A DNA stretch of 64,000 nucleotides from Saprospiraceae bacterium (lineage in GTDB: Bacteria; Bacteroidota; Bacteroidia; Chitinophagales; Saprospiraceae), in NCBI GenBank assembly GCA_019638455.1, contig JAHBTU010000005.1:277054-341053 (forward strand), in the 5' to 3' direction. Positions 9,036 to 53,693 of this stretch are shown here, piece by piece; position 1 is the stretch's first letter, and each line of letters opens with the position of its first letter. Made by a program: the position numbers and the translations under genes. The notes below the pieces were generated by a model. The model had not been told where the DNA came from, did no database searches, and saw only the letters and a list, made by a program, of their open reading frames with translations.

Positions 9036-10352
9036 TTATTTCTTCAAAAGTTCCCCATAAAGGTCGTACTCCTCCGCGCCCGTGATTTGCACGTCGGCAA
9101 AATCGCCGAGCCGGACGTAATTGCCTTCTGCTGGCACCAACACCTCATTGTCCACTTCTGGCGAATCGGATTCGGTGCGCCCGACGTAGTATTTTCCTTC
9201 CTTGCGGTCGAAAAGGGTCTTGAGCACTTGCCCGATTTTAGCCTGATTTTTTTCAAAGGAAATTTCTTGCTGCACCTCCATCAGCCGATTGGCGCGTTCT
9301 TCCTTCACCGCTGGGGGCACATCGTCGGCCATTTCGTGGGCGCGGGTGTTTTCCTCATGCGAGTATTGAAAAACGCCGACACGCTCGAATCGTTGTGTCT
9401 GCACGAAATCCAGCAATTGCTCGAAATCGTCGGCTGTTTCGCCGGGATGCCCCACCAAAAAGGTGGTGCGCAGCGCCACGCCCGGCACCTTTGCCCTTAT
9501 TTTTTCCAGCAATTCCTCCGTCTCGGTGCGGGTGATTTGGCGGCGCATCAGGTTCAGCACGTTGTCGCTGGCGTGTTGGAGCGGTATGTCGAGGTAGTTG
9601 CAAATCTCCTTTCGCTCGGCCATCACGTCGAGTATTTCGAGGGGGAATTTCGAGGGGTAGGCATAGTGCAGGCGTATCCATTCGATGCCCTCCACGTCGG
9701 CGAGCGCGTGGAGCAGGCGTGGCAACTCGCGGGTTTTGTAAATGTCAAGGCCGTAATAGGTGAGTTCCTGCGCGATGAGCAGGAGCTCTTTCACGCCGCG
9801 CCGCGCCAGATTTTTTGCCTCAAAAACCAGTTCTTCCACAGGGCGGCTGATGTGTTTGCCGCGCATGAGCGGGATGGCACAGAAGGAACAGGTGCGATTG
9901 CAGCCCTCCGAAATTTTCAGGTAGGCGTAGTGGGGTAGGGTGGTGATTTGGCGCTCGCCGAGCAACTCGTATTTGTAATCGGCTTCAAGGCGGGCGAGCA
10001 GCGCAGGCATTTCGAGGGTGCCAAAAAAAGCGTCCACTTCTGGGATTTCTGTTTCGAGGTCGTCCTTGTAGCGTTGCGAGAGGCAGCCCGTGACGTAGAG
10101 CTTCTCGATGCCGCCCGATTTTTTGATGTCGGCATATTCCAAAATCGTGTCAATGCTCTCCTGCTTGGCCACGTCAATGAAGCCGCAAGTGTTCACAATC
10201 ACCACGTTGGCCTCCAATTCGGGCGCATCGTGCGTCACCTCGAAATCGTTGCCGCGCAATTGCGTGATGAGATTTTCGCTGTCCACCAAGTTTTTGGAGC
10301 AGCCGAGCGTGACGACGTTGATTTTATCTTTGCGAATGGTTTTCGTTTTCAT
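9036..10352 (-). CDS. rimO: ribosomal protein S12 methylthiotransferase RimO
   Basis: Trimmed to MKTKTIRKDKINVVTLGCSKN at 10352. The radical-SAM motif is CNRTCSFCAIP, and there is a C-terminal TRAM-like domain. Confidence 0.9.
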   Translation of the reverse strand: MKTKTIRKDKINVVTLGCSKNLVDSENLITQLRGNDFEVTHDAPELEANVVIVNTCGFIDVAKQESIDTILEYADIKKSGGIEKLYVTGCLSQRYKDDLETEIPEVDAFFGTLEMPALLARLEADYKYELLGERQITTLPHYAYLKISEGCNRTCSFCAIPLMRGKHISRPVEELVFEAKNLARRGVKELLLIAQELTYYGLDIYKTRELPRLLHALADVEGIEWIRLHYAYPSKFPLEILDVMAERKEICNYLDIPLQHASDNVLNLMRRQITRTETEELLEKIRAKVPGVALRTTFLVGHPGETADDFEQLLDFVQTQRFERVGVFQYSHEENTRAHEMADDVPPAVKEERANRLMEVQQEISFEKNQAKIGQVLKTLFDRKEGKYYVGRTESDSPEVDNEVLVPAEGNYVRLGDFADVQITGAEEYDLYGELLKK

Positions 10353-12128: not shown

Positions 12129-14159
12129 ATGAAAGCTCCTCCCATTGCTGCCCGTCTTCTCCGTCGAAGACCCTCCATCTTAAAATCGGGCAGCGTGCAT
12201 CGGATATTCCACACCATCTCGCGTTTTTCAATTCGCAGCAAAACAGCCGCCGGCAATTTTTGCCTCCTCGCGCTCTGTGGGTTTGGGGCCAACCTCAACG
12301 GACTGCACGCGCAGGCCGATACCTTGCTCGCGCTGCCCTCCCCCGAAATCACCGCCCAGCACTTGCGCCGCCAACCCGCCGGAGCACAATCAACCACCCT
12401 CGATAGCACCTGCCTTGCCCTCCACCAAACTGAAAACGTGGCTGACGCGCTTTGGAAAAAAAGCGGGATGTATGTGAAAAGTTACGGCTTGGGCAGCTTG
12501 GCCACCACCTCTGCCCGGGGCGGCAGCGCGGGTCAAACTGCCATTGTTTGGAACGGTCTTCCGCTGCAAAGCCCCATGCTCGGCCAATTGGATTTTTCGC
12601 TATTGCCCCTTGTTTTCGTGGACGAAATGACCCTGCAATATGGCGGCAACAGCGCGGGTTGGGGCAGCGGAGCGATTGGTGGAGCCGTGCTGCTCGAAAA
12701 CAAATCACAGTTCATCACAGGCCTTTCCGCCCGCCTCAACGTGGCTGCGGGCAGTTTTGGTTGGCAGCACCACGCCACCACCCTTCGCTACGGCAATGGC
12801 CGCTGGGCTGGCTCCACGCGCATTTTTTTTGAAAAAGCCAACAACGATTTCACTTTTCAAATTCACCCCGACTTGCCGGAGACAAAACAAGAACACGCCG
12901 CTTTGCAGCAACAGGGCGTGTTGCAGGAATTTTTTTTGAAAACAAGGCCCAACGAAGAATTTGCCCTCCGGGTTTGGCTCCAAGACATTGCCCGCCAAAT
13001 CCCCCCGACCATCGTGCAAAACCGAAGCCAAGCCACACAAGCCGATGCCCTGCTCCGCACCACTTTGCACTGGAAAAAAACAAGCGGGCTGCTGACGTTG
13101 CAAACGCGGGCTGCCTTTTTCACCGAGACGCTGGACTACCGCGACCCGCTCATAGGACAAGCGTCGCTCAGCAAATTCCACACTTGGATGGGTGAAGCAG
13201 AGGCGACGCGATGGCTGGGGAGACAATCGAGGTTGCAAGGCTCCGTCATGCAGACCTACACCCGCGCTTCCACCCCCGCCTACGAAGCCTCGCCCCGCCA
13301 AACCCGCACCGCTGTCTTTCTCGCCATGCGGCGGGAAGGCCATCGTTGGCAAGCACAATTGGACGGGCGCATGGAATGGGTGGATGGCCGCTGGGTGCCC
13401 TTCACGCCCAGCGTGGGCGCAGAAGCCGAGGCGCTGCGTTTTTTAGAAATCAAGGGAAAAATCGCTCGCAACTACCGCTTGCCCACTTTCAACGACCTCT
13501 ACTGGCGCCCCGGCGGCAACCCCGAACTGCTGCCCGAAAGCGGTTGGAGCCAAGACGTGGGGTTGGTCTTCCACGGAAAAGCCAAGCAGTTGCGATGGTC
13601 TTATTCTGCCACAGGATTCCATCGCCGCATCCGCAACTGGCTCCTTTGGGCGCGTAAGGACGGTCAATTCTTTTTTTCGCCGCAAAACATCGCCGAAGTG
13701 TGGAGCCGAGGCATCGAGAGCCGCCTCGATGTGGCGAGCGCGTTTTCTTTTGGCGAAATAATCTTGACCGGGGGCCACGATTGGGTGCGCTCCACCAATG
13801 AATTGGCTGTGAGCAATCCGCGCATTGAGCAAGGGGCACAGTTGTTCTATGTGCCGACGCACCGTGTTTTTGCGGAGGTCTCCGTTCGGGTCAAACATTT
13901 CCAAATCACGGGTTTCCAACAATTTACTGAAAAAGTAACAGGCATCAACGAGGACGTGCCTAGTTTCAGCATTGGCAGCCTGCGCATACAGTACGCCCGC
14001 CCTTTTGGCGACTGGAACGGAGCCATTTTTCTGCACATAGAAAATTTGTGGGACGCGGATTACCAAGTCATCGAACGCCGCCCCATGCCGGGGCGACATT
14101 TCCGATTGGGCTTCAACGCGGGTTTCTCGACCCGCAAACACACCAATTCTTCATCATAA
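12129..14159 (+). CDS. TonB-dependent receptor, BtuB-like (B12-riboswitch controlled)
   Basis: The plug region is VADALWKKSGMYVKSYGLGSLATTSARGGSAGQTAIVWNGLPLQSP and the barrel ends in GFNAGF. The start is uncertain: the ORF opens at 12012 inside the riboswitch, so I used the ATG at 12129. Confidence 0.8.
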   Translation: MKAPPIAARLLRRRPSILKSGSVHRIFHTISRFSIRSKTAAGNFCLLALCGFGANLNGLHAQADTLLALPSPEITAQHLRRQPAGAQSTTLDSTCLALHQTENVADALWKKSGMYVKSYGLGSLATTSARGGSAGQTAIVWNGLPLQSPMLGQLDFSLLPLVFVDEMTLQYGGNSAGWGSGAIGGAVLLENKSQFITGLSARLNVAAGSFGWQHHATTLRYGNGRWAGSTRIFFEKANNDFTFQIHPDLPETKQEHAALQQQGVLQEFFLKTRPNEEFALRVWLQDIARQIPPTIVQNRSQATQADALLRTTLHWKKTSGLLTLQTRAAFFTETLDYRDPLIGQASLSKFHTWMGEAEATRWLGRQSRLQGSVMQTYTRASTPAYEASPRQTRTAVFLAMRREGHRWQAQLDGRMEWVDGRWVPFTPSVGAEAEALRFLEIKGKIARNYRLPTFNDLYWRPGGNPELLPESGWSQDVGLVFHGKAKQLRWSYSATGFHRRIRNWLLWARKDGQFFFSPQNIAEVWSRGIESRLDVASAFSFGEIILTGGHDWVRSTNELAVSNPRIEQGAQLFYVPTHRVFAEVSVRVKHFQITGFQQFTEKVTGINEDVPSFSIGSLRIQYARPFGDWNGAIFLHIENLWDADYQVIERRPMPGRHFRLGFNAGFSTRKHTNSSS

Positions 14160-14170
14160 AATTCAAACAA

Positions 14171-15142
14171 ATGCAACACCTTTTGACTTCTGTCGCACTA
14201 TTGCTGGCCTTCGGCGCACACGCGCAAACAGTGGCCAACTTTGAAAATTTCAACCTCCCGCCCAATACTTTTGTCAACAATGCCGGAGCGGCGGGCGCGT
14301 TCACCAGCGCCGATATCGAGTTGCCCAACAATTACAATGCGCAGTGGATGAGCTGGGACGGTTGGGCGATTTCCAACCGAACGGACGATACGACTCCGGG
14401 CTTTCTCAACGAATCGAGTGCCGCTGCGGGCAAAGGAGCCAACGGCTCTGCCACCTACGCGGTCAGCTATGTCTTCGGTGCCTCCATCATGCGGCTGACA
14501 GGCGCGACAGCAGGCGGGAAAGTGCTCGGCTTGTACGTCACGAACAACACCTACGCCTATTTCAGCATGAAGGACGGCGATGCTTTCGCCAAAAAATTCG
14601 GCGGTATCACGGGCAACGACCCCGATTTCTTCCTGCTCACGGTGAAAAAATACCTCAACGGCCAACTTGGCACCGACAGCGTCAATTTTTATCTGGCCGA
14701 CTACCGCTTCGCCAACAATGCGCAGGACTACATCGTGAAAGATTGGGCCTGGCTCGACCTCAGCAGTCTGGGCAACGCCGATAGCCTGCAATTCACGCTT
14801 ACATCCAGCGATGTGGGTGCCTTTGGCATGAACACGCCCGCCTACTTCTGCGTGGATGATGTGACGACGGAGGATGTGCTTTCGCAGGACGATGTTGTTT
14901 TGAATGCCCTGTCGTTCGATGTCTTTCCCAACCCGACCAGTGATTTTTTGAACGTCCGCTTGGCGGAAGATGCTGATAACGCCATTGTCCAAATCTTCGA
15001 TTTGCAAGGGAAATTAGTGTCTGAAAAAACGATTTCTGGCCCTCAGCCTCGTCTCGACACACGCCCGTTGCCAGCGGGTGCTTACTTCATTCGGGTAGGG
15101 CAAGGTGGCAAAATTGGCGTGGGGAAATTCATCAAGGAATGA
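14171..15142 (+). CDS. DUF4465-like protein with T9SS type A C-terminal sorting domain
   Basis: Trimmed to MQHLLTSVALLLAFGAHAQ, a signal peptide. FENFNL...WDGWAISNRTD...ATYAVSY...YVTNNTYAYFSMKDGDAFAKKF matches DUF4465 as I recall it. The C-terminus FDVFPNPTSDFLNV...YFIRV is a T9SS CTD. Confidence 0.7.
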   Translation: MQHLLTSVALLLAFGAHAQTVANFENFNLPPNTFVNNAGAAGAFTSADIELPNNYNAQWMSWDGWAISNRTDDTTPGFLNESSAAAGKGANGSATYAVSYVFGASIMRLTGATAGGKVLGLYVTNNTYAYFSMKDGDAFAKKFGGITGNDPDFFLLTVKKYLNGQLGTDSVNFYLADYRFANNAQDYIVKDWAWLDLSSLGNADSLQFTLTSSDVGAFGMNTPAYFCVDDVTTEDVLSQDDVVLNALSFDVFPNPTSDFLNVRLAEDADNAIVQIFDLQGKLVSEKTISGPQPRLDTRPLPAGAYFIRVGQGGKIGVGKFIKE

Positions 15143-23450: not shown

Positions 23451-25418
23451 ATGTTGCTCCGACGCTTATCTTTCCTCATCCCCTTCTTCATTTCTTTCGC
23501 CCTCTATGCCCAATCGCCATACTCCGTCGTCTCGCCCAATGGAGCCGTCATGGCAGTCGTGGAGACCTCGCCCAGCCTGAATTGGCAAATTTTCCTGCGC
23601 AATCGTCCCCTCACGACACTTGCGCCACTCTCCTTGTCGCTGGCCGAACACGGTATCTTGGGAGCCAACCCAGAGGTAAAAATGACGGATTGGGCCTCTA
23701 CCGACATTGTGCGCCGACCCGACGTGCGTCAGAAAAGCGCCACGGTAACCGACCAGTTCAATGAGCTGACCCTGACGTTCAAAGGCGATTGGGGGGTAGT
23801 GTTTCGGGCCTACAACGAAGGAGTGGCCTATCGTTTTTTCACCAATTTCAAAGGCAAAGCAACGGTGTTGGACGAAACGTTCGCTTTCCGCCCCATCCTT
23901 TGCAACACTATTTTTTTCCCGGAAGAAGAAAGCTTCTACTCTCACAACGAACGCATCGCCAAACGCCTTTCCCCTGCCGACTTGAATGAACACCACCTCG
24001 CCAGTTTGCCCGCCTTGGCGGAGCTGGACGGCGGCGTGAAAATACTGCTCACCGAAACCGACCTGCAACATTATCCCGGCCTGTGGGTGCTGGGCACCGC
24101 CAGCAAAAACGGCTCCCTACGCGGCACTTTCCCCCGGCTTCCCAAACACACGGTCGAATTGACTGACCGCGACATTCAGCCCACCGACCGAACACCTTTC
24201 CTGGCCATCACCGATGGCACCCGCCAATACCCCTGGCGCCTGATGCTCATTGCCGAAAAAGACCAACAACTGCTGACCAACCAACTACCGTGGCTGCTCG
24301 CCGCGCCCAGTCGGCTCAAAGATGCCTCTTGGATACGCCCCGGCAAAGTCGCGTGGGATTGGTGGAACAACCTGAACGTGCACGGCGTGGATTTCCGGGC
24401 TGGCGTGAACACCGCCACTTATTGCCATTTTGTGGATTTTGCAGCCGAAAACGACCTCGACTACATCATCCTCGACGAAGGGTGGTCGGAGCCGGGCGAC
24501 CTCCGCCGCATCAACCCGGCACTCGACATGGATGGTCTGGCCGCATATTCCAAGACCAAAAATGTCGGCCTCATCCTTTGGGTCACTTGGACTACGATTG
24601 ACCGCCAGTTCGACGAACTGTTGCCCAATTTGAAAAAATGGGACATCAAAGGGCTGAAAATTGACTTCATGCAGCGCGACGACCAACAGGCCGTCAATTT
24701 CTATTGGCGCATGGCTGAAAAATGCGCGGCCAACAAGCTCCTCGTGGATTTTCACGGGGCACACAAACCTGCGGGCCTGCAACGCACATGGCCCAACGTG
24801 CTCACCTTCGAGGGCGTGTATGGGCTGGAGCAGGCCAAATGGGACGACAAAAAGCAAATTGACCCAGAACACGACGTCACCCTCCCTTTCCTTCGGCAAG
24901 TGGCAGGCCCGATGGACTACACTCCCGGCGCGATGCTCAATTATCAGAAAAACGATTGGGCGCCTTCATGGAACCGCCCCGCCTCGCTCGGCACACGCTG
25001 CCACGAACTGGCGAAATACATCGTGTTTGAAAGCCCCTTGCAAATGCTTGCCGACAGCCCGACGAATTACCGGAAAGAACCAGAATGTCTGCGCTTCCTC
25101 TCCAAAGTACCGGTGGTGTGGGAAAAGACCGTCGCCTTGGACGGGAAAATAGGCGACTTCGTGGCGGTGGCCCGGCAAGCCGCCGATAGTCTTTGGTATA
25201 TCGGCGCGATGACCGACTGGAACACCCGCGAGCTGACACTCGAAACCGACTTCTTGCCGAAGGGCGACTATGAAATCGAAATCTATCAGGATGGCCCCAA
25301 TGCGGACCGATGTGCCCAAGACTACCTGCGTACCATCAGGCGTATGAAAAGTGGCGACAAACTCGGGGTGAAAATGGCGCCGGGCGGTGGTTTTGTGGCG
25401 GTGCTAAGGAAGATGTGA
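23451..25418 (+). CDS. glycoside hydrolase family 97 (SusB-like alpha-glucosidase)
   Basis: 655 aa with a signal peptide. The DYIILDEGW and GLKIDFMQRDDQ blocks are typical of GH97. Confidence 0.85.
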   Translation: MLLRRLSFLIPFFISFALYAQSPYSVVSPNGAVMAVVETSPSLNWQIFLRNRPLTTLAPLSLSLAEHGILGANPEVKMTDWASTDIVRRPDVRQKSATVTDQFNELTLTFKGDWGVVFRAYNEGVAYRFFTNFKGKATVLDETFAFRPILCNTIFFPEEESFYSHNERIAKRLSPADLNEHHLASLPALAELDGGVKILLTETDLQHYPGLWVLGTASKNGSLRGTFPRLPKHTVELTDRDIQPTDRTPFLAITDGTRQYPWRLMLIAEKDQQLLTNQLPWLLAAPSRLKDASWIRPGKVAWDWWNNLNVHGVDFRAGVNTATYCHFVDFAAENDLDYIILDEGWSEPGDLRRINPALDMDGLAAYSKTKNVGLILWVTWTTIDRQFDELLPNLKKWDIKGLKIDFMQRDDQQAVNFYWRMAEKCAANKLLVDFHGAHKPAGLQRTWPNVLTFEGVYGLEQAKWDDKKQIDPEHDVTLPFLRQVAGPMDYTPGAMLNYQKNDWAPSWNRPASLGTRCHELAKYIVFESPLQMLADSPTNYRKEPECLRFLSKVPVVWEKTVALDGKIGDFVAVARQAADSLWYIGAMTDWNTRELTLETDFLPKGDYEIEIYQDGPNADRCAQDYLRTIRRMKSGDKLGVKMAPGGGFVAVLRKM

Positions 25419-25479
25419 AGTAGGTTGAATTGGCAGGGCTAAATCAGGCATTAGCCTAAAGCTATTCCACATGATAAAA

Positions 25480-26385
25480 TTACTGCCGAGTCAACCCCAC
25501 CAAATCCAAATTGATAACCGCCCCCAATGTGATAGCCAACTGCGGCCCACTAAAACCGGGTATATCATCGTCCAATTTGAATTCCGTGAAAGTCGCCTTG
25601 CCATAAAATGGCCCCAATTCCATTTTAACTCCATATTCCCAACCGTTGAAAACATATTCTTCAGTACCAAGAAAAAATTGACGAATTTCCTTTGCTGAAT
25701 TTAGGGCATAGTTGCCTCCTAATCGGCGAGTGGTGAAACCTGTGAATGCCAAAAGTTGAAAACTGCTCCAAGAGGGAGATTCAATTATATAATCAAAGAC
25801 TTGTAATGTACCAACTGCACTAAAAGCATTAAGCAATACGTCTGTTGACTGGTTTTCTTTTACCCACACCTGATTAGAGGAGCGGAGCTCCATATAGAGA
25901 CCAAAATTGCGATAAAACCATTTTGCTGGCTTCCATTTAGGGCTGGGCAAAAATTGAAGAAATCCATTTGTGCCAAAGCTTAGCGATAGCTCACTTAGGC
26001 CGCTATTGCGGTTTTGTGCCAGTAATAGATTGTTATAGAAAAATGCTGTATCCGCAACATTTTGTGCCACTAACTCTCGATTATTGGCAAAAGCGGCGAT
26101 TGAAATGTCGCCGTAAAAGCGATCTGAGACAAATGCAATCCCTAATTTCCCATTACTGATATTGTTATCGCCTTCACCATTATTTGTCGCAGAACGACTA
26201 AGGTCAGAAACAATAGAAATCAATGCATCAGCTGTTTTTGCAGGGGTTTTGACCAGAGCCTTTAAAGCAGGGGAGTCGCGCTCTGACTCAAAGCGATAAG
26301 TGCGGCCAGACTGACTTTGGAGGTGTAACGGAAATAAAACAAGCAGGGTAAGGGTAGCTTGTAAGGAGAGCCAAAATGATTTCAT
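25480..26385 (-). CDS. hypothetical secreted / outer-membrane beta-barrel-like protein in a low-GC patch
   Basis: Trimmed to MKSFWLSLQATLTLLVLFPLHLQSQ, a signal peptide. It has an alternating aromatic/hydrophilic pattern and visibly lower GC than its neighbours. I recognise no family. Confidence 0.5.
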   Translation of the reverse strand: MKSFWLSLQATLTLLVLFPLHLQSQSGRTYRFESERDSPALKALVKTPAKTADALISIVSDLSRSATNNGEGDNNISNGKLGIAFVSDRFYGDISIAAFANNRELVAQNVADTAFFYNNLLLAQNRNSGLSELSLSFGTNGFLQFLPSPKWKPAKWFYRNFGLYMELRSSNQVWVKENQSTDVLLNAFSAVGTLQVFDYIIESPSWSSFQLLAFTGFTTRRLGGNYALNSAKEIRQFFLGTEEYVFNGWEYGVKMELGPFYGKATFTEFKLDDDIPGFSGPQLAITLGAVINLDLVGLTRQ

Positions 26386-26583
26386 TTTGAAAGGTTTAAA
26401 AGTGAGCAAGATTCTTTACAATTATTCAACAGCAATTGTACGACAGGAAGGCTACCTGTTTTCTATCACTTTCGGTAGAGTTAGTTTAGTTTAAAAAGAT
26501 TAAGGCGGCGTACTTTTTTGTATTCAACCCCTCATTCGCGCATTCAATAAGCCTATGTAAAACGGATTTATTTTCTTTGCCTC

Positions 26584-29511
26584 ATGGCCCACCAAATCGT
26601 ATTCAACCTATACCCCTTCAACGAGGCGCTATTCCTGCCTTCCGCTTATATCGTGGAGGCAGATACGGACGGTCAACTGAAATACGTCGTTCAACGTGCG
26701 ACGGCGGCCACCATAGCACCCTACGAATTTGAGATGACAGAAACGTTCGAGCGGCTGCTGGGGATTATCGAGACACTGGAGCCAAAAACACTGGAGGCGA
26801 AATACAAACCACCGAAAGCCAAAACCACTGTACCGCTCGCTCGGCTGTTGGCCGACACCGACACCAAACAAGTGGTCGAGCGATTCATTTTCAACCAGAT
26901 GGATGCTTTCTTCACCCAAGTCACCCAACACCAACTGCCGCTCACGCTCGACCTACAACGCAAATCGTGGGCGAAGGATGTGCAAATCGTCCTCGCTCGC
27001 GAGCCACTCGTCCCCCATCTTTTTTTCAAAAAAACAAGCGCAGGCATCGAATACCGCCTGCAACTCGGCACGGAGGAAAAAACTTGGAATCTCCGCGAGC
27101 ACAACGTGTTGCCACTCACCAATACTGACCCCGCTTGGCTGCTCATAGACTATGCCCTGTTTCGGGTGCCGGGCATCAATGGCAACATGGTGAGGCCTTT
27201 TCGGCAAAAAGACGCGGTGCAAATCCCGCCCGACAAAGAGCGGGCATATTTCAAGTTTATTGAAAAAAGCATCCGCCGCAGCCGCGTGGAAGCCGAGGGT
27301 TTTGAAATAAAAAAGACAGAAAATCTGCGTGTCACGCGCCTCGAAGCAGTAGAAAATGTATTGGAAAGTCGCTGGCTGCTGCGCCCCGTTTTTGAATACG
27401 GTGGCGCTGAGTTTGTCCATGGCGACCGCCGCGACCGCGTCACCTCGCTCGACATTCCGCAAGGAGAGCAAGGCGAAGTCGCGGTGCATCTTATTACCCG
27501 AAATGAAAAGGCCGAACGCGAGCAAATTGATTTTTTGAAAAAAACGGGGCTGAATGCGGAGGGTACCCTGTTTGCCACACCGGAGGCAGCCAAAGGCGGC
27601 CTCGCTTCCATATTGGATTTTCTGGTGCGTCACCGCCCGATGCTCGAAGCCGCTGGTTTTTCAATCAGCGCCCCGCAAACAGCGGGCAAAACGCTCGCCC
27701 TCGCCACCTCCGATATAAGTGTGCGCTCCGAAGCGGCGGGAGATTGGTTCGACGTGCAAGGCCGCGTCACGGTGGGCGACTACTCGTTTCCTTTCCAAAA
27801 ACTGCTGCCCAACCTGCGCCGAGCCGACCCCTATTTCCCCCTGCCCGACGGCACGTTTTTTCTCATCCCCGACGAATGGTTTGCCCGCTACGCCGACCTT
27901 GCCGGAGCGGTGCAGGAGCAGAGCGAACAGCTGCGTTTGCCAAAGGCGCTCTATACCGTCCTGCAAGAAAGCCTGCCCGAAACGGACGGGGTGCAACTGC
28001 CCGATATTGACCCTGAAAAAATTGACTACCAACCTTCAGACAGCCTTAAAGCAGATTTGCGCCCCTATCAAATGGCGGGCGTGAAATGGCTCATCGGACA
28101 CTATCAACATGGTTTTGGCGCTTGTCTCGCCGACGACATGGGGCTGGGCAAAACCTTGCAGACGCTCGCCATGCTGGTGTACGCGAAGGAAAACATCCCC
28201 GGCGACGATAGCCACAAACAGGAAGCAATCGCTCCTCAATTGGACCTCTTTTCCGCACACCGCCAAGCCCTCAGCCCGCTCAATGCCCTCGTCGTATTGC
28301 CCGCCTCCCTGGTGTTCAACTGGCAGCGCGAACTGGCAAAATTCGCCCCCGACCTCTACAAAATGACCTACATCCACACCGGACCAAAACGGCTGAAAGA
28401 TGCTCGCGCACTCGCGATGCACGACGTGGTGCTCACCACCTACCATACGGCCCGACAGGACTTGGCCCTATTAGGAAAAATAGAGTGGCAGTTCATCATT
28501 CTGGACGAAAGCCAGCAAATCAAAAACAGAGAATCGGAAGTCTCCAAAGTGGTGCGCAGCCTGCGCGGTCGCCACAAAATATCGCTGTCCGGCACGCCCA
28601 TCGAGAATTCGTTAGCCGATTTATGGACGCAGATGGAGTTCATCAACCCCGACACGTTGGGCAGCTACAAGGTATTCCGGGAGCAGTTCCAAACGCCCAT
28701 CGAAAAACAAAACGACGAACAGGCAAAGGCGCGGTTGTTCAGCCGGGTGAAGCCATTTTTTTTGAGAAGAACCAAAGAAGAGGTCGCGCCAGACTTGCCC
28801 GAACTGACGCAGCAGATTTTTTTCTCCGAAATGCCCGATGCACAGCGCAAACTGTACGAACAGGTGAAATCCGCCGTGCGCAACGAAATCCTCTCTTTGT
28901 TCGACGACCCGAAAACCCGGCTCATGGCCTTGCAGGCCCTCACCCGGCTGCGCCAATTGGCCAATCACCCCCTGCTCACCGATGCGGACTATGCTGGCCC
29001 CAGCGGCAAAATGGACGACGTGCTGGCCCAATGGGATGTGGTTCGCAGGGCTGGCCACAAGGTGTTGTTCTTCAGTTCCTTTGAGCAACATTTGTCCATA
29101 TTCAGGAAAAAGATGGAGGCCGACAAGCAGCCGCTGGCTTGGCTCACGGGCGCAGTGCCGGTGCCAGAGCGCGCCCATGAGGTGGAGCGTTTTCAGACCG
29201 ACACTTCGGTGCAAGCCTTCTTGATGACACTCGGCGCTGGTGGCGTTGGCCTCAATCTCACGGCAGCCGATTATGTCTTTATGCTCGACCCCTGGTGGAA
29301 CCCCGCCAAAGAAGACCAAGCCATCGCCCGCGCCCACCGCATAGGCCGCAAGCATCCGGTGACGGCGATACGATTCATCGCCCGCGACACCATAGAGGAG
29401 AAAATCGTGCAGATGCAGGAACGCAAGCGGGCGCTTGGCACCGATTTGTTTGCGGCGGGAGCCGAGTATCCTTCCTTAGACCGAGAGGATGTGGTCATGC
29501 TGTTGGATTGA
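26584..29511 (+). CDS. SNF2-family helicase (N-terminal bacterial SNF2-associated region + DEXH + HELICc)
   Basis: 975 aa with LRPYQMAGVKWL, LADDMGLGKT, FIILDESQQIKN, and the C-terminal LMTLGAGGVGLNLTAADYVFMLDPWWNP and QAIARAHRIG. Confidence 0.9.
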   Translation: MAHQIVFNLYPFNEALFLPSAYIVEADTDGQLKYVVQRATAATIAPYEFEMTETFERLLGIIETLEPKTLEAKYKPPKAKTTVPLARLLADTDTKQVVERFIFNQMDAFFTQVTQHQLPLTLDLQRKSWAKDVQIVLAREPLVPHLFFKKTSAGIEYRLQLGTEEKTWNLREHNVLPLTNTDPAWLLIDYALFRVPGINGNMVRPFRQKDAVQIPPDKERAYFKFIEKSIRRSRVEAEGFEIKKTENLRVTRLEAVENVLESRWLLRPVFEYGGAEFVHGDRRDRVTSLDIPQGEQGEVAVHLITRNEKAEREQIDFLKKTGLNAEGTLFATPEAAKGGLASILDFLVRHRPMLEAAGFSISAPQTAGKTLALATSDISVRSEAAGDWFDVQGRVTVGDYSFPFQKLLPNLRRADPYFPLPDGTFFLIPDEWFARYADLAGAVQEQSEQLRLPKALYTVLQESLPETDGVQLPDIDPEKIDYQPSDSLKADLRPYQMAGVKWLIGHYQHGFGACLADDMGLGKTLQTLAMLVYAKENIPGDDSHKQEAIAPQLDLFSAHRQALSPLNALVVLPASLVFNWQRELAKFAPDLYKMTYIHTGPKRLKDARALAMHDVVLTTYHTARQDLALLGKIEWQFIILDESQQIKNRESEVSKVVRSLRGRHKISLSGTPIENSLADLWTQMEFINPDTLGSYKVFREQFQTPIEKQNDEQAKARLFSRVKPFFLRRTKEEVAPDLPELTQQIFFSEMPDAQRKLYEQVKSAVRNEILSLFDDPKTRLMALQALTRLRQLANHPLLTDADYAGPSGKMDDVLAQWDVVRRAGHKVLFFSSFEQHLSIFRKKMEADKQPLAWLTGAVPVPERAHEVERFQTDTSVQAFLMTLGAGGVGLNLTAADYVFMLDPWWNPAKEDQAIARAHRIGRKHPVTAIRFIARDTIEEKIVQMQERKRALGTDLFAAGAEYPSLDREDVVMLLD

Positions 29512-48082: not shown

Positions 48083-48488
48083 CACCGCCTTCAAACTCCG
48101 CACGTCGTCCTGCGCATCAATCGTCTTTGCTTTGCAGCAACACCAAAAATTCGTCAGAAGCAAGCAGATTCAAAGGGGTGAAAGGCGTTCGTTTCAAAAC
48201 ACGGAAGTCAGCGTGGTCGGAAACAACGTAAGAGGCAGTAACGCCAACCTTCCGGTTGGCCGCCAACTGAAAGTTGGCGTTACTGCACCGCCTTCAAACT
48301 CCGCATGTCGTCCTGCGCATCAATCGTCTTTGCTTTGCAGCAACACCAAAAATTCGTCAGAAGCAAGCAGATTCAAAGGGGTGAAAGGCGTTCGTTTCAA
48401 AACACGGAAGTCAGCGTGGTCGGAAACAACGTAAGAGGCAGTAACGCCAACCTTCCGGTTGGCCGCCAACTGAAAGTTGGCGTTACTG
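48083..48488. repeat. tandem direct repeat, 2 x 203 bp, containing the mfd terminator hairpin
   Basis: Units 48083-48285 and 48286-48488 differ at one base by my reading (cacgtcg vs catgtcg). Each unit holds gcagtaacgccaac...gttggcgttactgc (14-bp stem) and a segment of about 35 nt homologous to mfd codons QDEVRSLKAV. Confidence 0.9.
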
Positions 48489-50885
48489 CACCGCCGAAAT
48501 CACCTGCTCCAGCACCCCCTTCACCGCCTTCAAACTCCGCACCTCGTCCTGCACGAAGATGAGTTCCTTGTTCGTCTGCTTGAGTGAAATGCCCATGATG
48601 CGACCTTTGGCACCCACGAACTGCACGATTTTGTTGAAAGTCTCCGTCTCGAAAAACGACGATTGCGGGTCGCCGAGGAAGTAGCAGCGTAGTTTGCCGC
48701 CTTTCAGAATCAACCTTTCAAAACCTAATTTTTTGCAAAGCCACTGGAGACGCAGACCGTCGAAGAGCGCGTTCACCTGATGCGGTAATTTGCCGAAACG
48801 GTCCTCCAATCGCTTGGCGAAAGCGGCGATGCCTTCCTCGTTTTCGATGGTGTTGAGTTCTGTGTAAAGGCTCAGGCGTTCTTGCGTGTTCGAGACGTAT
48901 TCGTCGGGAATGAGCATTTCCACGTCGGTTTCGATGGTCACGTCGCGGACATAGGAGCCTTTTTGCGCGATTTCTTCCTTGAAAACATCTTTGAAATCCG
49001 TCTCTTTCAACTCCTGAATGGCCTCGTCGAGAATTTTCTGGTAAGTCTCGAAACCGATGTCGGCGATGAAGCCTGACTGCTCGCCGCCGAGCAAATTGCC
49101 CGCGCCCCGGATGTCGAGGTCGCGCATGGCGACCTGAAAGCCGGAGCCGAGTTCGCTGAATTCCTCGATGGTGCGCAGGCGCTTGCGGGCTTCCTGCGTG
49201 AGCACGCTCATGGGCGGCGCGAACAGGTAGCAATAGGCTTTTTGGTTGCTGCGGCCCACGCGTCCGCGCAGTTGGTGCAAGTCGCTGAGGCCGAACATAT
49301 CGGCGCGGTTGATGATAATCGTGTTCGCGTTTGGGATGTCGAGGCCGGTTTCGATGATGTTGGTGCAGGCCAACACGTCGAATTTCCGGTCAATGAAATC
49401 CACCAGAACTTTTTCCAGATGTTCGGCATCCATCTGGCCGTGCGCCATCGCCACTTCGGTGTCGGGGCAAAGGCGTTTGAGCGTTTCGACGATTTTGGGC
49501 AAATCGTTCACCCGGTTGTGGACAAAAAACACCTGCCCGCCGCGATTGACTTCGGTGTGAATGACTTCTTTGATTAAATCTTCGTCGAACACACGAATCT
49601 CTGTGTGAATCGGCTGGCGGTTGGGTGGCGGCGTGCGAATCACCGAGAGGTCGCGGGCGGCCATGAGCGAGAATTGGAGGGTGCGCGGGATGGGCGTAGC
49701 GGTTAGCGTGAGCGTGTCCACGTTGACTTTCAGGGTGCGGAGTTTTTCTTTCGAGGCGACGCCGAATTTTTGTTCCTCGTCCACCACGAGCAAGCCTAAA
49801 TCCTTGAATCCCACTTCTTTGCCAAGTAGCGCATGGGTGCCGATGACGATGTCAATCTCGCCTTTTTTGAGTTTTTCCAGAATCTCTTTTTTCTCCTTCG
49901 CGCTGCGGAAACGGTTGAGATAATCCACTGTGACAGGAAAATCGGCGAGACGTTCGGAGAAAGTTTTCCAGTGCTGCAAGGCCAGAATCGTCGTAGGCAC
50001 GAGCACGGCGACTTGCTTGCCGTCGGTGACGGCTTTGAATGCCGCACGAATGGCGACTTCCGTTTTGCCGAAACCCACGTCGCCACAAATCAGGCGGTCC
50101 ATCGGGTATTCTTTCTCCATGTCGGCCTTCACGTCCTGCGTGGATTTGTACTGGTCGGGCGTGTCTTCGTAGATAAAACTGGCTTCGAGTTCGGTTTGCA
50201 GCACGTCGTCGGGCGGGAAAGCGTGGCCTTTGGCAGCGCGGCGGGCGGCGTAGAGTTTGATGAGTTCCGCCGCGATGTCCTTGATTTTGCGCTTGGTGCG
50301 GGCTTTGAGTTGTTTCCAAGCGTCGGAGCCGATTTTGGAGAGTTGCGGCGGCTCGCCTTCGCGCCCGATGTACTTCGAGATTTTGTGCAGCGAGTGGATG
50401 CTGACGTAGAGGATGTCGTTGTTTTTGTAATTGAGCCGCACGGCTTCCTGCATCTGGCCGCCGATTTCGATTTTTTGCAGGCCCGCGAATTTACCGATGC
50501 CGTGGTCAATGTGTGTCACATAGTCACCCGGCGCGAGTTCGCGCAACACGCGGTAGTTCAGCGATTGGTCTCTGGAAAATCCCTGCCGGATTTTGTAGGC
50601 GTGGTAACGCTGGAAAATCTGGTGGTCGGTGAGCACCTCGATTTTTAAATCTTCGTCAATAAACCCCTCGTGAATCGGGATTTCGACGGGCAAAAACGCC
50701 ACGTTGGCCTTCAATTCTTTAAAAATCGCTGCCAGTCGGTCGAACTGTTTGGGGTTTTCCGAACAAATATAGGTTTCGTAGCCCGCCGCTTTCATCTCGT
50801 GCAGGTGGCGGATGAGCAGGTCGAAGTTTTTGTTGAAAGAGGGTTGGGGCTTGGAGTGGAAGGGGATGGTGGTGGTAGATTTCAT
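48483..50885 (-). CDS. mfd: transcription-repair coupling factor Mfd, lacking the N-terminal UvrB-homology module
   Basis: 800 aa. The RNAP-interacting/CarD-like region is GDYVTHIDHGIGKFAGL at about residue 115. It also has GDVGFGKTEVA, VVDEEQKFG, QLHQLRGRVGRS and a C-terminal D7-like region. An in-frame TGA lies three codons upstream of the ATG. Full-length Mfd proteins are about 1100-1150 aa. Confidence 0.85.
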   Translation of the reverse strand: MKSTTTIPFHSKPQPSFNKNFDLLIRHLHEMKAAGYETYICSENPKQFDRLAAIFKELKANVAFLPVEIPIHEGFIDEDLKIEVLTDHQIFQRYHAYKIRQGFSRDQSLNYRVLRELAPGDYVTHIDHGIGKFAGLQKIEIGGQMQEAVRLNYKNNDILYVSIHSLHKISKYIGREGEPPQLSKIGSDAWKQLKARTKRKIKDIAAELIKLYAARRAAKGHAFPPDDVLQTELEASFIYEDTPDQYKSTQDVKADMEKEYPMDRLICGDVGFGKTEVAIRAAFKAVTDGKQVAVLVPTTILALQHWKTFSERLADFPVTVDYLNRFRSAKEKKEILEKLKKGEIDIVIGTHALLGKEVGFKDLGLLVVDEEQKFGVASKEKLRTLKVNVDTLTLTATPIPRTLQFSLMAARDLSVIRTPPPNRQPIHTEIRVFDEDLIKEVIHTEVNRGGQVFFVHNRVNDLPKIVETLKRLCPDTEVAMAHGQMDAEHLEKVLVDFIDRKFDVLACTNIIETGLDIPNANTIIINRADMFGLSDLHQLRGRVGRSNQKAYCYLFAPPMSVLTQEARKRLRTIEEFSELGSGFQVAMRDLDIRGAGNLLGGEQSGFIADIGFETYQKILDEAIQELKETDFKDVFKEEIAQKGSYVRDVTIETDVEMLIPDEYVSNTQERLSLYTELNTIENEEGIAAFAKRLEDRFGKLPHQVNALFDGLRLQWLCKKLGFERLILKGGKLRCYFLGDPQSSFFETETFNKIVQFVGAKGRIMGISLKQTNKELIFVQDEVRSLKAVKGVLEQVISAVQ

Positions 50886-50899
50886 GGCGGTCTTTCAGT

Positions 50900-52006
50900 T
50901 TACTTGACTACAAAAATGATGTCTGCCAACGGAGTAAATGTCTGTGGCTTCCCTTTGTAACCGAAAGTTACTTTCAAGTCCTCGGTTTTCTTGTTGCCAA
51001 AATTGTCGAGGTATTTTTGAATTGTCGGTTTCAACAAATCCAGATTTCGTTTTAACTTCCAAGAGTTGTTGAAATCCTCTGTGTCCACCAAAACGAGAAA
51101 AAGCCTGTTTTCAGAACCAAAACGCATTTCGCCTTGGTTTTTATAAAGCCATTTTGACAAGATTTTTGGGTTTGATTGGGCTTCCTGCAAAATCTGGAGG
51201 TTTTCTCGCCGGAGTTGGTTCAGTGTTTTTGAGCAAAAAGCATCGCTCCTGTCTTTCATCTTTTCTACAATTTCGCATTGAATATCACTTGGCTTTGCTG
51301 TTTTGTCAAAGACAATCTTTGCCTTCACTGCTTGCTGCTTCAAAAAGGTCAGTTCTGCCGGGAATCCTTTCTGCTTCCGTTTTTCTTTGATGAATTCAGC
51401 GAGCAAATAAGTCACTTTGAGGTCGAAAGGAATGTCGTTGATGAAAAAATCCACGCTTTTGATTTGCCCGACCGTAGGCAAGACAGCGGGGTGGGATTTG
51501 AAAATGTGCTCAATCAGGATGCTCGACCAATGGTTGTACCAACTGTTGAGCACATATCCTTGCACCGCGCGGCTGATTTCGGTGTCGAATTTAGAGAGAA
51601 GCGTTTCGTAGGATTGGAGCGCTTTCACATAGCGGCTGACCAAGTATTTGTCCAAAGAGTTTTGGTAGTCGCCACCCCAGTCAAAACTTTTGAGTTTGTA
51701 AAGTTCAGAGACGAGTTGCGCGGTGTCTATGTTGCTTGCTTGCGTTTTATTGATTTTTTGGATAAAGGCATTGAGCGGTTGATGCGATTCGGAGACATCT
51801 TTTGACAAAATTTCGTAGAGTTCTTCAAACTGTTTGGAGAGCGCGGATTGGGTAAGTTTTAGATTGGTTTCTTTTGCAAATGCAGCGAGCAACTCTTTTC
51901 GCACGACCGATTTGATTTTCAACCAAAGCAACCCTGCTTTGTCAGAGCTGAACTCCTCCAATTTGTCGCTGTCGTGCAGTTTTTTCCAATGGTCAAAGTT
52001 CTTCAT
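50900..52006 (-). CDS. putative Type II restriction endonuclease (PD-(D/E)XK-like), family not recognised
   Basis: 368 aa and low GC. It overlaps the methyltransferase gene by 14 nt. The candidate catalytic pattern is ILIEHIF ... SVDFFINDIPFDLKVTY (E...D...DxK). Confidence 0.5.
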   Translation of the reverse strand: MKNFDHWKKLHDSDKLEEFSSDKAGLLWLKIKSVVRKELLAAFAKETNLKLTQSALSKQFEELYEILSKDVSESHQPLNAFIQKINKTQASNIDTAQLVSELYKLKSFDWGGDYQNSLDKYLVSRYVKALQSYETLLSKFDTEISRAVQGYVLNSWYNHWSSILIEHIFKSHPAVLPTVGQIKSVDFFINDIPFDLKVTYLLAEFIKEKRKQKGFPAELTFLKQQAVKAKIVFDKTAKPSDIQCEIVEKMKDRSDAFCSKTLNQLRRENLQILQEAQSNPKILSKWLYKNQGEMRFGSENRLFLVLVDTEDFNNSWKLKRNLDLLKPTIQKYLDNFGNKKTEDLKVTFGYKGKPQTFTPLADIIFVVK

Positions 52007-53105
52007 TCAGGATTATTTCTGCCCTTGAAGTCAGATTTACAAAATGCTTAGGCTTGGGTTTGCAGACAAACAAAATTTCCCGGCTCCCTGCGATGCTTCC
52101 TTTGCCGCCCCGCCCGTTCTGATAGGTTTTGGCTTCGATTTCAACGTTTCGATATTTTGAAATCATGTTGGTCAGTTCCTCGACGCTTGGGTAGCTGCGG
52201 TCATTGTAACTGATGAGCCAATGGGGTATTTCCTGAGCCTGTTCAAAGAGCTTTTCAAATGACCGAGCAACGTCTTTCTTTTTGTCAAAGCCGCTGAACC
52301 GTTGCGGTTCATATCTTTTGATGCCGTTGATAAATTGCTTGTCCTGCCAATACTCCGTGTAAGTTTCCAGCAAGTGGTAAAAACTCTGGTAATCAGGATG
52401 GCTGTCGCAGTATGGAGGGTCAAAGTATATTAAATCAACCTTCTCCATAGTGGGCAGCAAATCCAGTATGTTTTGGTTAAAGCTGCGGTTGTTTTTCTTG
52501 TTTGAAAATACGGCACTGTTGTAGGCAGGGACGAGTTCGAGAAATATTTCTTTCAATGGTCGCACCAAACTTCTGTTTCGCCTTATACGCGCTGGGTCGT
52601 TTGCATATCGCAAGGCTTGAGTGTGTCCAAAATGCCCCATCGTCACCTTTCGGGTCATGCTCCGATTGATGATGGCAAATGCAAGCGCCTTTTTATATGG
52701 ATTTTCAAAAAATTCGAGATTTGCCCTGAAATTGTCTAAAAATTCCGCTTCTTCTTTTTCAAAAAACACATCGGTGTAAACCTGCTCAATTAGCCGAAAT
52801 TGCTCCTTCTTAGGTGATATCGATAAAAGAAAATTTAGGTCGGCTTGAGTCAGTTTCTGCTCTCCGTTTTCAATAAGCGCCAATCCGATTTGGTGGTTAA
52901 AACTCAAGAAATCGTTTGTAATTACCTGAAAACCTAGCTGTTTCAGTAAAAAAGCAACTGTCTGTGAACCCGCAAAAGCATCAACCGCCGTGACCACACT
53001 GCGTGGAATAAATTTATTCATCCAAGCCAAATGAGTGTGCTTCGCGCCCAGATATTGCGGCTCCGGGAATTGATAGTCAAAATACTTGAACTCTTCAAAA
53101 AGCAT
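51993..53105 (-). CDS. D12-class (alpha) N6-adenine DNA methyltransferase
   Basis: ORF 51993..53354 trimmed to MLFEEFKYF at 53105. YLGAKHTHL, motif I VDAFAGSQTV and motif IV LIYFDPPYCDS occur in the alpha order. GC is low. Confidence 0.85.
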   Translation of the reverse strand: MLFEEFKYFDYQFPEPQYLGAKHTHLAWMNKFIPRSVVTAVDAFAGSQTVAFLLKQLGFQVITNDFLSFNHQIGLALIENGEQKLTQADLNFLLSISPKKEQFRLIEQVYTDVFFEKEEAEFLDNFRANLEFFENPYKKALAFAIINRSMTRKVTMGHFGHTQALRYANDPARIRRNRSLVRPLKEIFLELVPAYNSAVFSNKKNNRSFNQNILDLLPTMEKVDLIYFDPPYCDSHPDYQSFYHLLETYTEYWQDKQFINGIKRYEPQRFSGFDKKKDVARSFEKLFEQAQEIPHWLISYNDRSYPSVEELTNMISKYRNVEIEAKTYQNGRGGKGSIAGSREILFVCKPKPKHFVNLTSRAEIILNEEL

Positions 53106-53201
53106 GAAAACGATTCTCGATAGGAAGTTGTTTGAGAGTGCAAAGTAACGAAGAATCAAACGCCTCCCCCATTTTTTCACCCCGCTCACTACCTTTGCCA
53201 C

Positions 53202-53693
53202 ATGGAAAACAGCTCGCACCACGAGGCCCCCATTCCGTCTCACCGCTTCCTGCTGGAGGAGATACAAGCTTTGCAAATCTTTGAAAAACAAGTGCTTGAA
53301 GGGGTCAATTACTACATCTGGCACAATCAATCCGAGGCGGGTACCATGCCCCATCGCTTTTTATACGCGGTCGAGCTCCTGTTCGATGGAGGGGAGCCGC
53401 TTCTCCTTTCTTCGGGAGATGATTCGGAAGCCATTCGACTGCTCACAGCGGAGGCGCTGACGGAGACAGCCCGCAGGCTACAACGGATGCACGGCAAGCC
53501 AGTCATGCAGCGCGCCGTGGCAGGCATCCAACCGCTTTGGCGCGAAGTGGTGGGCAAAACGCTGGAACATATCCGCCTCTCGCGCGACGAAGAAGGTCTC
53601 TATCTCAACGACTCGATATTGCTCGACTTTGGCGAGCACCGTGTGCTGGTGTATCTGAGCGAGCGCGAGGGACTGTTAGCGGCTACTTATTAG
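53202..53693 (+). CDS. hypothetical protein
   Basis: 163-aa ORF of host-like GC. I recognise no family. An alternative start is the Met at 53346. Confidence 0.4.
   Translation: MENSSHHEAPIPSHRFLLEEIQALQIFEKQVLEGVNYYIWHNQSEAGTMPHRFLYAVELLFDGGEPLLLSSGDDSEAIRLLTAEALTETARRLQRMHGKPVMQRAVAGIQPLWREVVGKTLEHIRLSRDEEGLYLNDSILLDFGEHRVLVYLSEREGLLAATY

Follow-up and report, generated by a model that had tools for sequence, protein, structure and literature searches.

A low-GC cassette in a Saprospiraceae genome pairs a predicted D12-class adenine methyltransferase with a candidate restriction endonuclease of an undescribed family

We examined a stretch of 64,000 nucleotides from a Saprospiraceae bacterium (contig JAHBTU010000005.1, positions 277,054 to 341,053, called the window below) in which an islet of low guanine-plus-cytosine (GC) content carries two overlapping genes, together called the cassette. 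One encodes a predicted N6-methyladenine (m6A) DNA methyltransferase (M), the other a 368-residue protein (R). We propose that they constitute a restriction-modification (R-M) pair with R as the endonuclease, a reading to which we assign a probability of about 0.75. It is supported mainly because a nuclease-type motif is conserved throughout the R family and because linkage of this family to a DNA methyltransferase is invariable. The islet is then most likely an ordinary kind of bacterial defence unit, composed of a methylase and a cutting enzyme. An earlier note, made from the sequence of the window, had proposed a candidate uncharacterised Type II R-M system; the conserved residues and the linkage described below support this proposal, cleavage remaining a prediction.

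The M open reading frame (ORF) as listed encodes 453 aa and extends to position 53354. Translation almost certainly begins instead at the ATG at 53105, giving a protein of 370 aa with the N-terminus MLFEEF, because homologues measure 368-370 aa and DNA homology to relatives begins at this point. M matches Pfam PF02086 over profile positions 1-252 of 253 (E = 2.8e-15; 57.2 bits, for a cut-off of 22) and the PADLOC MTase_II model PDLC03385 over the whole model length (E = 5.4e-58). It also aligns with the second half of the two-domain PADLOC model PDLC03261 (E = 3e-40). From their lengths (336 positions for PDLC03385 and 643 for PDLC03261) we presume that these are NlaIII/FokI-type models; the known partners of NlaIII/FokI-type methyltransferases are proteins unrelated to R. 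The S-adenosylmethionine-binding motif I, VDAFAGSQT, occupies residues 41-49 (window 52959-52985) and the catalytic DPPY residues 229-232 (window 52410-52421), so that motif I lies N-terminal to motif IV, which is the alpha order. On the Dam model TIGR00571 M reaches 19.5 bits for a cut-off of 114.85, which places it outside the Dam subfamily. No solved structure related to M by sequence was detectable. Judged by its sequence, M is a D12/alpha-class m6A methyltransferase, and the earlier assignment to this class is borne out by PF02086, PDLC03385 and the order of the motifs.

R belongs to a family that is large and well conserved (3,475 clusters at 90% identity, 510 representatives at 50%) and absent from the Pfam, NCBIfam, PADLOC and PDB descriptions. 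R itself has an exact counterpart (100% identity) in a Saprospiraceae metagenome-assembled genome (MAG), where it is listed as a 'hypothetical protein', the only name that its relatives bear in the source databases. The best 120 matches are nearly all exactly 368-369 aa long and originate from Saprospiraceae, Runella, Flavobacteriales, Ginsengibacter and other Bacteroidota MAGs, while a 45%-identical cluster comes from a gammaproteobacterial MAG. A tblastn search of R against plasmid and phage collections returned nothing.

An alignment of 34 diverse members (22-59% identical to the window protein) has invariant columns at E166, D186, F187, P193, D195, Y288, Q291 and R301, and nearly invariant ones at K197, W156 and Y157. 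K197 is at least 90% conserved among these 34 members and invariant in a 30-sequence core alignment. The family therefore carries the (E)...D...(D/E)xK pattern of PD-(D/E)XK nucleases. The E...D...DxK arrangement that the earlier note had pointed out in the 368-aa protein is indeed present, and since its residues are the invariant or nearly invariant positions of the family, this string represents the conserved heart of R.

The AlphaFold model of R is predicted with high confidence scores (predicted local distance difference test, pLDDT, of 93.2 over its full length and of 93.3 over residues 131-368). In the model, an N-terminal helical part of ~130 residues is followed by a long helix (133-170) that carries E166 at its C-terminal end. 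D186 belongs to strand 185-189, the second of three consecutive strands, and D195-x-K197 to the third (192-200). Then come helix 203-212, a helical insertion of ~90 residues, and strands 301-307 and 360-367. The PD-(D/E)XK core has the order alpha-beta-beta-beta-alpha-beta, in which strand 2 begins with the D and strand 3 carries (D/E)xK. The predicted succession of helices and strands in R would fit this core.

The closest parallel in organization is offered by Type II R-M systems combining an alpha-class (D12) m6A methyltransferase with a PD-(D/E)XK endonuclease, such as EcoRV, whose catalytic residues are E45, D74, D90 and K92. As in EcoRV-type systems, the cassette consists of two genes, one of them for a D12/alpha methyltransferase, and R has an upstream helix glutamate followed by D...DxK on consecutive strands, according to the prediction. 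In contrast to EcoRV, R is ~120 residues longer, with an N-terminal helical domain and a ~90-residue helical insertion between core strands. Moreover, it displays no detectable sequence similarity and no significant structural similarity to EcoRV or to any solved restriction enzyme.

The genetic surroundings of the R family point to the same kind of system. A DNA methyltransferase gene lies directly upstream of R in 13/13 distinct contexts examined. In 12 of them it encodes a D12 enzyme of 350-370 aa, usually overlapping R by 4-14 nt. In the thirteenth (locus L108, 3448-6101), a 37%-identical R member is associated instead with a 518-aa methyltransferase of the PF01555 family (N6_N4, beta class), with a 4-nt overlap. 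As the methyltransferase neighbour is kept while its class is exchanged, the R family behaves as restriction endonucleases do. The metagenomic protein P0122 (729 aa) combines an M-like first half (63% identity) with an R-like second half (55% identity), and may be either a true M-R fusion or the product of a frameshift in the 14-nt overlap. Three of the 13 contexts are defence islands, which contain Shedu SduA_C and AAA_13 genes (L001), genes for an Eco57I-like enzyme, SIR2-HerA and ThsB TIR (L091/L092), or SIR2-HerA (L098).

We infer a nuclease fold and a cleavage activity for R, a specificity shared with M and a defence role for the pair. According to this model, M would mark the host copies of a short target by N6-adenine methylation, and R, by virtue of the 14-nt overlap, would be produced only after M and in step with it. 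R would be a Mg2+-dependent endonuclease whose PD-(D/E)XK-type core follows the N-terminal helical domain, with E166, D186 and D195 serving as metal ligands and K197 activating the water. It would then cut unmethylated copies of the M target on incoming DNA.

Several observations weigh against R being a restriction endonuclease. R has no match in Pfam, NCBIfam, PADLOC, the PDB sequences (phmmer) or the PDB searched by profile, and when the 34 diverse members were scanned singly against Pfam, no recurring match and no match to a nuclease family appeared. Thus, none of the known restriction-enzyme models of PADLOC, Pfam and NCBIfam recognizes R, nor does it exhibit profile similarity to a family of the PD-(D/E)XK clan. 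The absence of clan-profile similarity is common for restriction enzymes and compatible with a PD-(D/E)XK fold. In Foldseek searches the full R model gave non-significant matches, at best E = 0.96 in the PDB and 0.2 in BFVD. With the core model, the two top PDB matches are chains of ThaI (3ndh), a small PD-(D/E)XK enzyme, also non-significant (E 0.6-0.9, probability 0.18, 63-65 aligned columns, TM score 0.12-0.15). As Foldseek provides no significant neighbour, the nuclease fold is argued from motif and topology. Furthermore, members at least 70% identical, such as all of the best 120 matches, are found across different Bacteroidota orders, a degree of conservation unusual among restriction enzymes, although it would be explained if a single specificity had spread horizontally. 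Finally, carriers of the cassette do not show clear and consistent avoidance of any one word, and there is therefore no independent sign of a restriction pressure attributable to it. The statement of the earlier note that the partner matches no nameable family thus holds for Pfam, NCBIfam, PADLOC and the PDB, and the searches gave no confident match to a non-nuclease family either, an outcome that the note had named as one that would refute its proposal.

These same points are those that would favour a non-classical partner of M. R could be an effector, non-specific or of the abortive-infection type, that methylation restrains, or else it could read the methyl mark as a DNA-binding or regulatory protein, and its ~130-residue N-terminal helical part, to which no role is assigned, would be in keeping with this. 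However, the invariant E...D-x8-D-x-K carried by a helix and three strands is what a PD-(D/E)XK nuclease needs, and an acidic triad would be needless for a mere methylation reader. The gene order, the overlap, the occasional fusion to M and the replacement of D12 by N6_N4 are also typical of R-M pairs. We therefore regard a non-classical partner as unlikely and retain R as the probable endonuclease.

The target of the pair was approached through word frequencies, given as observed/expected ratios (O/E) where no counts are stated. The earlier note had suggested looking for under-represented short palindromes. Such palindromes are found: GATC is present 8 times in the window for 200 expected, an avoidance of ~25-fold, and CTAG 5 times for 66 expected. 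Among 6-nt palindromes of the window, CACGTG (0/12.8), CTGCAG (0/14.5), CTCGAG (4/30) and AGCGCT (2/21) are also scarce. The avoidance of GATC is not, however, linked to the cassette. GATC O/E is 0.87 and 0.69 in the carriers L002 and L030, and 0.03-0.16 in L055, L052, L061 and L005, which have no cassette in the fetched locus; among related Saprospiraceae it spans 0.03 to 1.2. Since it does not track the cassette, GATC avoidance is a host trait with another cause. Together with the scarcity of the other palindromes, it suggests that further restriction systems are encoded elsewhere in the genome.

The GATC systems Dam, DpnII and MboI share with the cassette a methyltransferase of the D12 Pfam family, and the host window avoids their target. 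The cassette differs from them in that M falls far below the cut-off of the Dam model, R has no DpnII or MboI Pfam match, and the avoidance is independent of cassette presence. GATC as the target, and its avoidance as evidence about the cassette, were accordingly rejected. CATG, an idea derived from the lengths of the PADLOC models, was rejected as well, for its O/E of 0.70-0.77 in carriers against 0.82 in controls indicates no special avoidance.

Words were also counted in a pooled set of 11 carriers totalling ~254 kb (the window, L001, L002, L030, L085, L087, L088, L091, L094, L098 and L103). CATATG (5 observed for 28.4 expected; control O/E 0.61) and GAGCCC/GGGCTC, rare in all 11 carriers (4.5 observed for 31.6 expected; control O/E 0.76), are weak leads, and TTCGAA is a further one. 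GAGCCC would fit poorly with a lone m6A enzyme, because one of its strands has no adenine. None of these leads convincingly survives multiple testing, and a literature search on CATATG methylomes turned up only unrelated papers.

The ratio of nonsynonymous to synonymous substitutions (dN/dS) is 0.07-0.10 for M and R against two relatives, the values for R being 0.076 against L085 and 0.093 against L087. R and M are thus under purifying selection. It could be argued that the cassette is a decaying or inactive remnant, an orphan methyltransferase with a dead partner, as many genomic R-M systems are inactive and as its residence has been long enough for synonymous divergence (dS) between lineages to reach 0.5-1.4. 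Yet both ORFs are intact and of the standard length of their families, the catalytic motifs are preserved, and the low dN/dS applies to both genes, so that this possibility is very improbable.

The cassette is foreign by composition. GC content is 0.427 in window 50886-53160, against a mean of 0.541 for other 2,275-nt windows (standard deviation 0.018, minimum 0.470; z = -6.2), and the islet is the lowest-GC 2-kb stretch within the 64 kb. Windows of 300 nt give 0.40-0.47 in the islet and 0.55-0.61 in the flanks, and GC at third codon positions is 0.49 for M and 0.53 for R, compared to 0.61-0.72 in neighbouring genes. The abrupt low-GC islet reported by the earlier note is therefore confirmed by sliding-window GC, a check that had been named beforehand. 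Its figure of 33-40% GC inside corresponds only to local minima, the islet mean being 42.7%. Of its sharp edges, both do break within ~100 nt of the gene boundaries, but the 3' side is more gradual, because the first ~400 nt of the adjoining mfd gene have a GC content of only 0.48-0.51. Cassettes of low-GC hosts have a GC content of 30-34%, against 39-43% here.

Two ORFs of the minus strand (51993..53354 as listed, and 50900..52006) fill the islet, and the earlier description of two co-oriented genes overlapping by 14 nt is correct (Table 1). The same overlap geometry is found in L001, L002, L085, L087, L088, L091 and L094. It implies co-transcription, probably with coupled translation, M coming first. 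Upstream of M, homology to other cassette copies ceases ~20 nt before the start codon, as seen in the alignment with L030. At L085 (6410-6930) and L086 (3076-3566), two small ORFs (79-89 aa and 84 aa) absent from the window lie just upstream of the methyltransferase gene; the second has a weak HNH match and overlaps the methyltransferase start.

Table 1. Coordinates, in the window, of the cassette, its predicted catalytic residues, the adjoining mfd gene and the GATC sites
Feature	Position	Strand	Description or basis
M gene	51993..53105	-	predicted 370-aa D12-class (alpha) N6-adenine DNA methyltransferase
R gene	50900..52006	-	368-aa putative PD-(D/E)XK restriction endonuclease, undescribed family
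Overlap of M end and R start, 14 nt, ATGAAGAACTTTGA	51993..52006	-	sequence
R candidate catalytic residue E166	51509-51511	-	conserved column
R candidate catalytic residue D186	51449-51451	-	conserved column
R candidate catalytic residue D195	51422-51424	-	conserved column
R candidate catalytic residue K197	51416-51418	-	conserved column
Divergent intergenic region, 96 nt, from M to the plus-strand ORF 53202-53693; presumed cassette promoter region	53106..53201	.	sequence, alignments
Spacer from R stop codon to mfd start codon, 14 nt	50886..50899	-	sequence
mfd, 800 aa, N-terminally truncated	48483..50885	-	Pfam domains, homology block
GATC sites	7082, 11106, 26121, 30884, 43452, 56741, 57353, 62116		whole window

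How the cassette arrived had been left unexplained by the earlier note, for want of an integrase, a transposase, a controller protein or flanking repeats. This absence is confirmed in the window: no gene of these kinds, no flanking direct or inverted repeat and no bracketing repeat was found at the islet edges, so that the islet has none of the marks of a mobile element. In one other genome (L088), a split tyrosine-integrase gene adjoins the cassette. Comparison of synteny with relatives, on the other hand, gives part of the answer, as the junction between the cassette and a truncated mfd gene is shared.

The Pfam domains of the window mfd are RID, DEAD, Helicase_C and TRCF, without UvrB_inter, which in the full-length Mfd of L019 (1,143 aa) occupies residues 171-257. 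RID starts at residue 117 in the window protein and at residue 461 in that of L019; ~344 N-terminal residues are therefore missing, and they are not encoded elsewhere in the window. A protein of this form would be expected to retain the ability to displace RNA polymerase and to have lost that of recruiting UvrA. Saprospiraceae/Lewinellaceae MAGs account for all of the closest mfd relatives, and many close relatives share a short mfd starting at the identical residue (...FHxKPQPSFNKNF). In a neighbour-joining tree, the short form is encountered in three Saprospiraceae groups (loci L005-L040), interleaved with full-length lineages. Short and full-length forms occupy one and the same locus and are orthologous.

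Because the cassette adjoins truncated mfd in four Saprospiraceae lineages, it is not a recent arrival. Homology between the window and L085 extends exactly from 53105 to 48490, the start of M to the end of mfd, with 89.6% identity, both flanks being unrelated. Synonymous divergence between the two is 0.48 for M, 0.69 for R and 0.38 for mfd; cassette divergence is thus about that of mfd in the comparison with L085, and it is greater than that of mfd in the comparison with L087. In the R-protein tree the window, L085 and L087 form one clade, and L030 branches below all sequences at least 70% identical. L030, which has the cassette, and its 96%-identical sister L031 differ in cassette presence. 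A search at E up to 1 in the DNA preceding short mfd genes without the cassette detected no trace of either the cassette or the missing N-terminal part of mfd. In our reading, the cassette is a resident that was passed on vertically together with mfd, at least within the window/L085/L087 clade, and was repeatedly lost. That its low GC has persisted after such divergence suggests slow amelioration.

The distance from the R stop codon to the start of short mfd is 14 nt in the window, 2 nt in L030 and 13 nt in L085/L086. As a 14-nt spacer leaves no room for a terminator or a promoter, transcription probably enters mfd from the cassette or from a promoter internal to R. In L087, a 95-aa ORF directly after R (9133-9420) duplicates the first ~120 codons of mfd; it is followed by a 3.3-kb insertion with a gene for a Por_Secre_tail protein and then by a complete short mfd (12707-15106). 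These narrow junctions, the restriction of window-L085 homology to exactly M-R-mfd, the mfd 5' fragment retained right after R in L087 and the occurrence of the association in two separate mfd clades would all be expected of a three-gene module. In such a module the Mfd translocase, having lost the N-terminus that recruits UvrA and exerts autoinhibition, would act together with R, or expression of mfd would depend on the cassette. Nevertheless, most relatives with a short mfd have no cassette upstream, mfd is the neighbour in 0/9 cassette contexts outside Saprospiraceae, and the short gene is the orthologue of the full-length one at the same locus. In view of these three points, historical linkage explains the data without functional cooperation, and we consider a three-gene module quite improbable. 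One may also imagine that insertion of the cassette itself removed the UvrA-recruiting N-terminus of mfd and created an M-R-mfd(deltaN) operon in which mfd depends on the R-M genes or works with them, and that this allele, cut at one and the same residue throughout, spread among related lineages, most of which later lost the cassette. We hold this scenario to be improbable. The preferred reading thus remains that of a two-gene R-M cassette next to a truncated mfd.

Two other places in the window may be mentioned. The ORF divergent from M (53202-53693, plus strand, 163 aa) has a host-like GC of 0.56 and no Pfam or NCBIfam match. The second-lowest GC stretch lies at 25001-27000 (0.467). It holds an ORF at 25480-26409 (minus strand, 309 aa) that has no Pfam match and adjoins the gene of a 975-aa SNF2/RapA-like helicase (26584-29511).

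Should R prove to be an active endonuclease, it would be the founding member of a large family of restriction enzymes undescribed in curated libraries, comprising thousands of sequence clusters, mostly of Bacteroidota from environmental metagenomes, with a confident predicted structure and no solved relative. It might possess a new or useful specificity, and annotation pipelines could then name several thousand 'hypothetical proteins'. The kind of system is ordinary and the general picture of R-M biology is unchanged by these findings. A minor evolutionary point is that mfd lacks its N-terminal third precisely at the place occupied by a selfish R-M cassette, and that the remainder of the gene is probably co-transcribed with this cassette. 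This provides a case in which the reshaping of a core repair gene by an R-M insertion can be tested.

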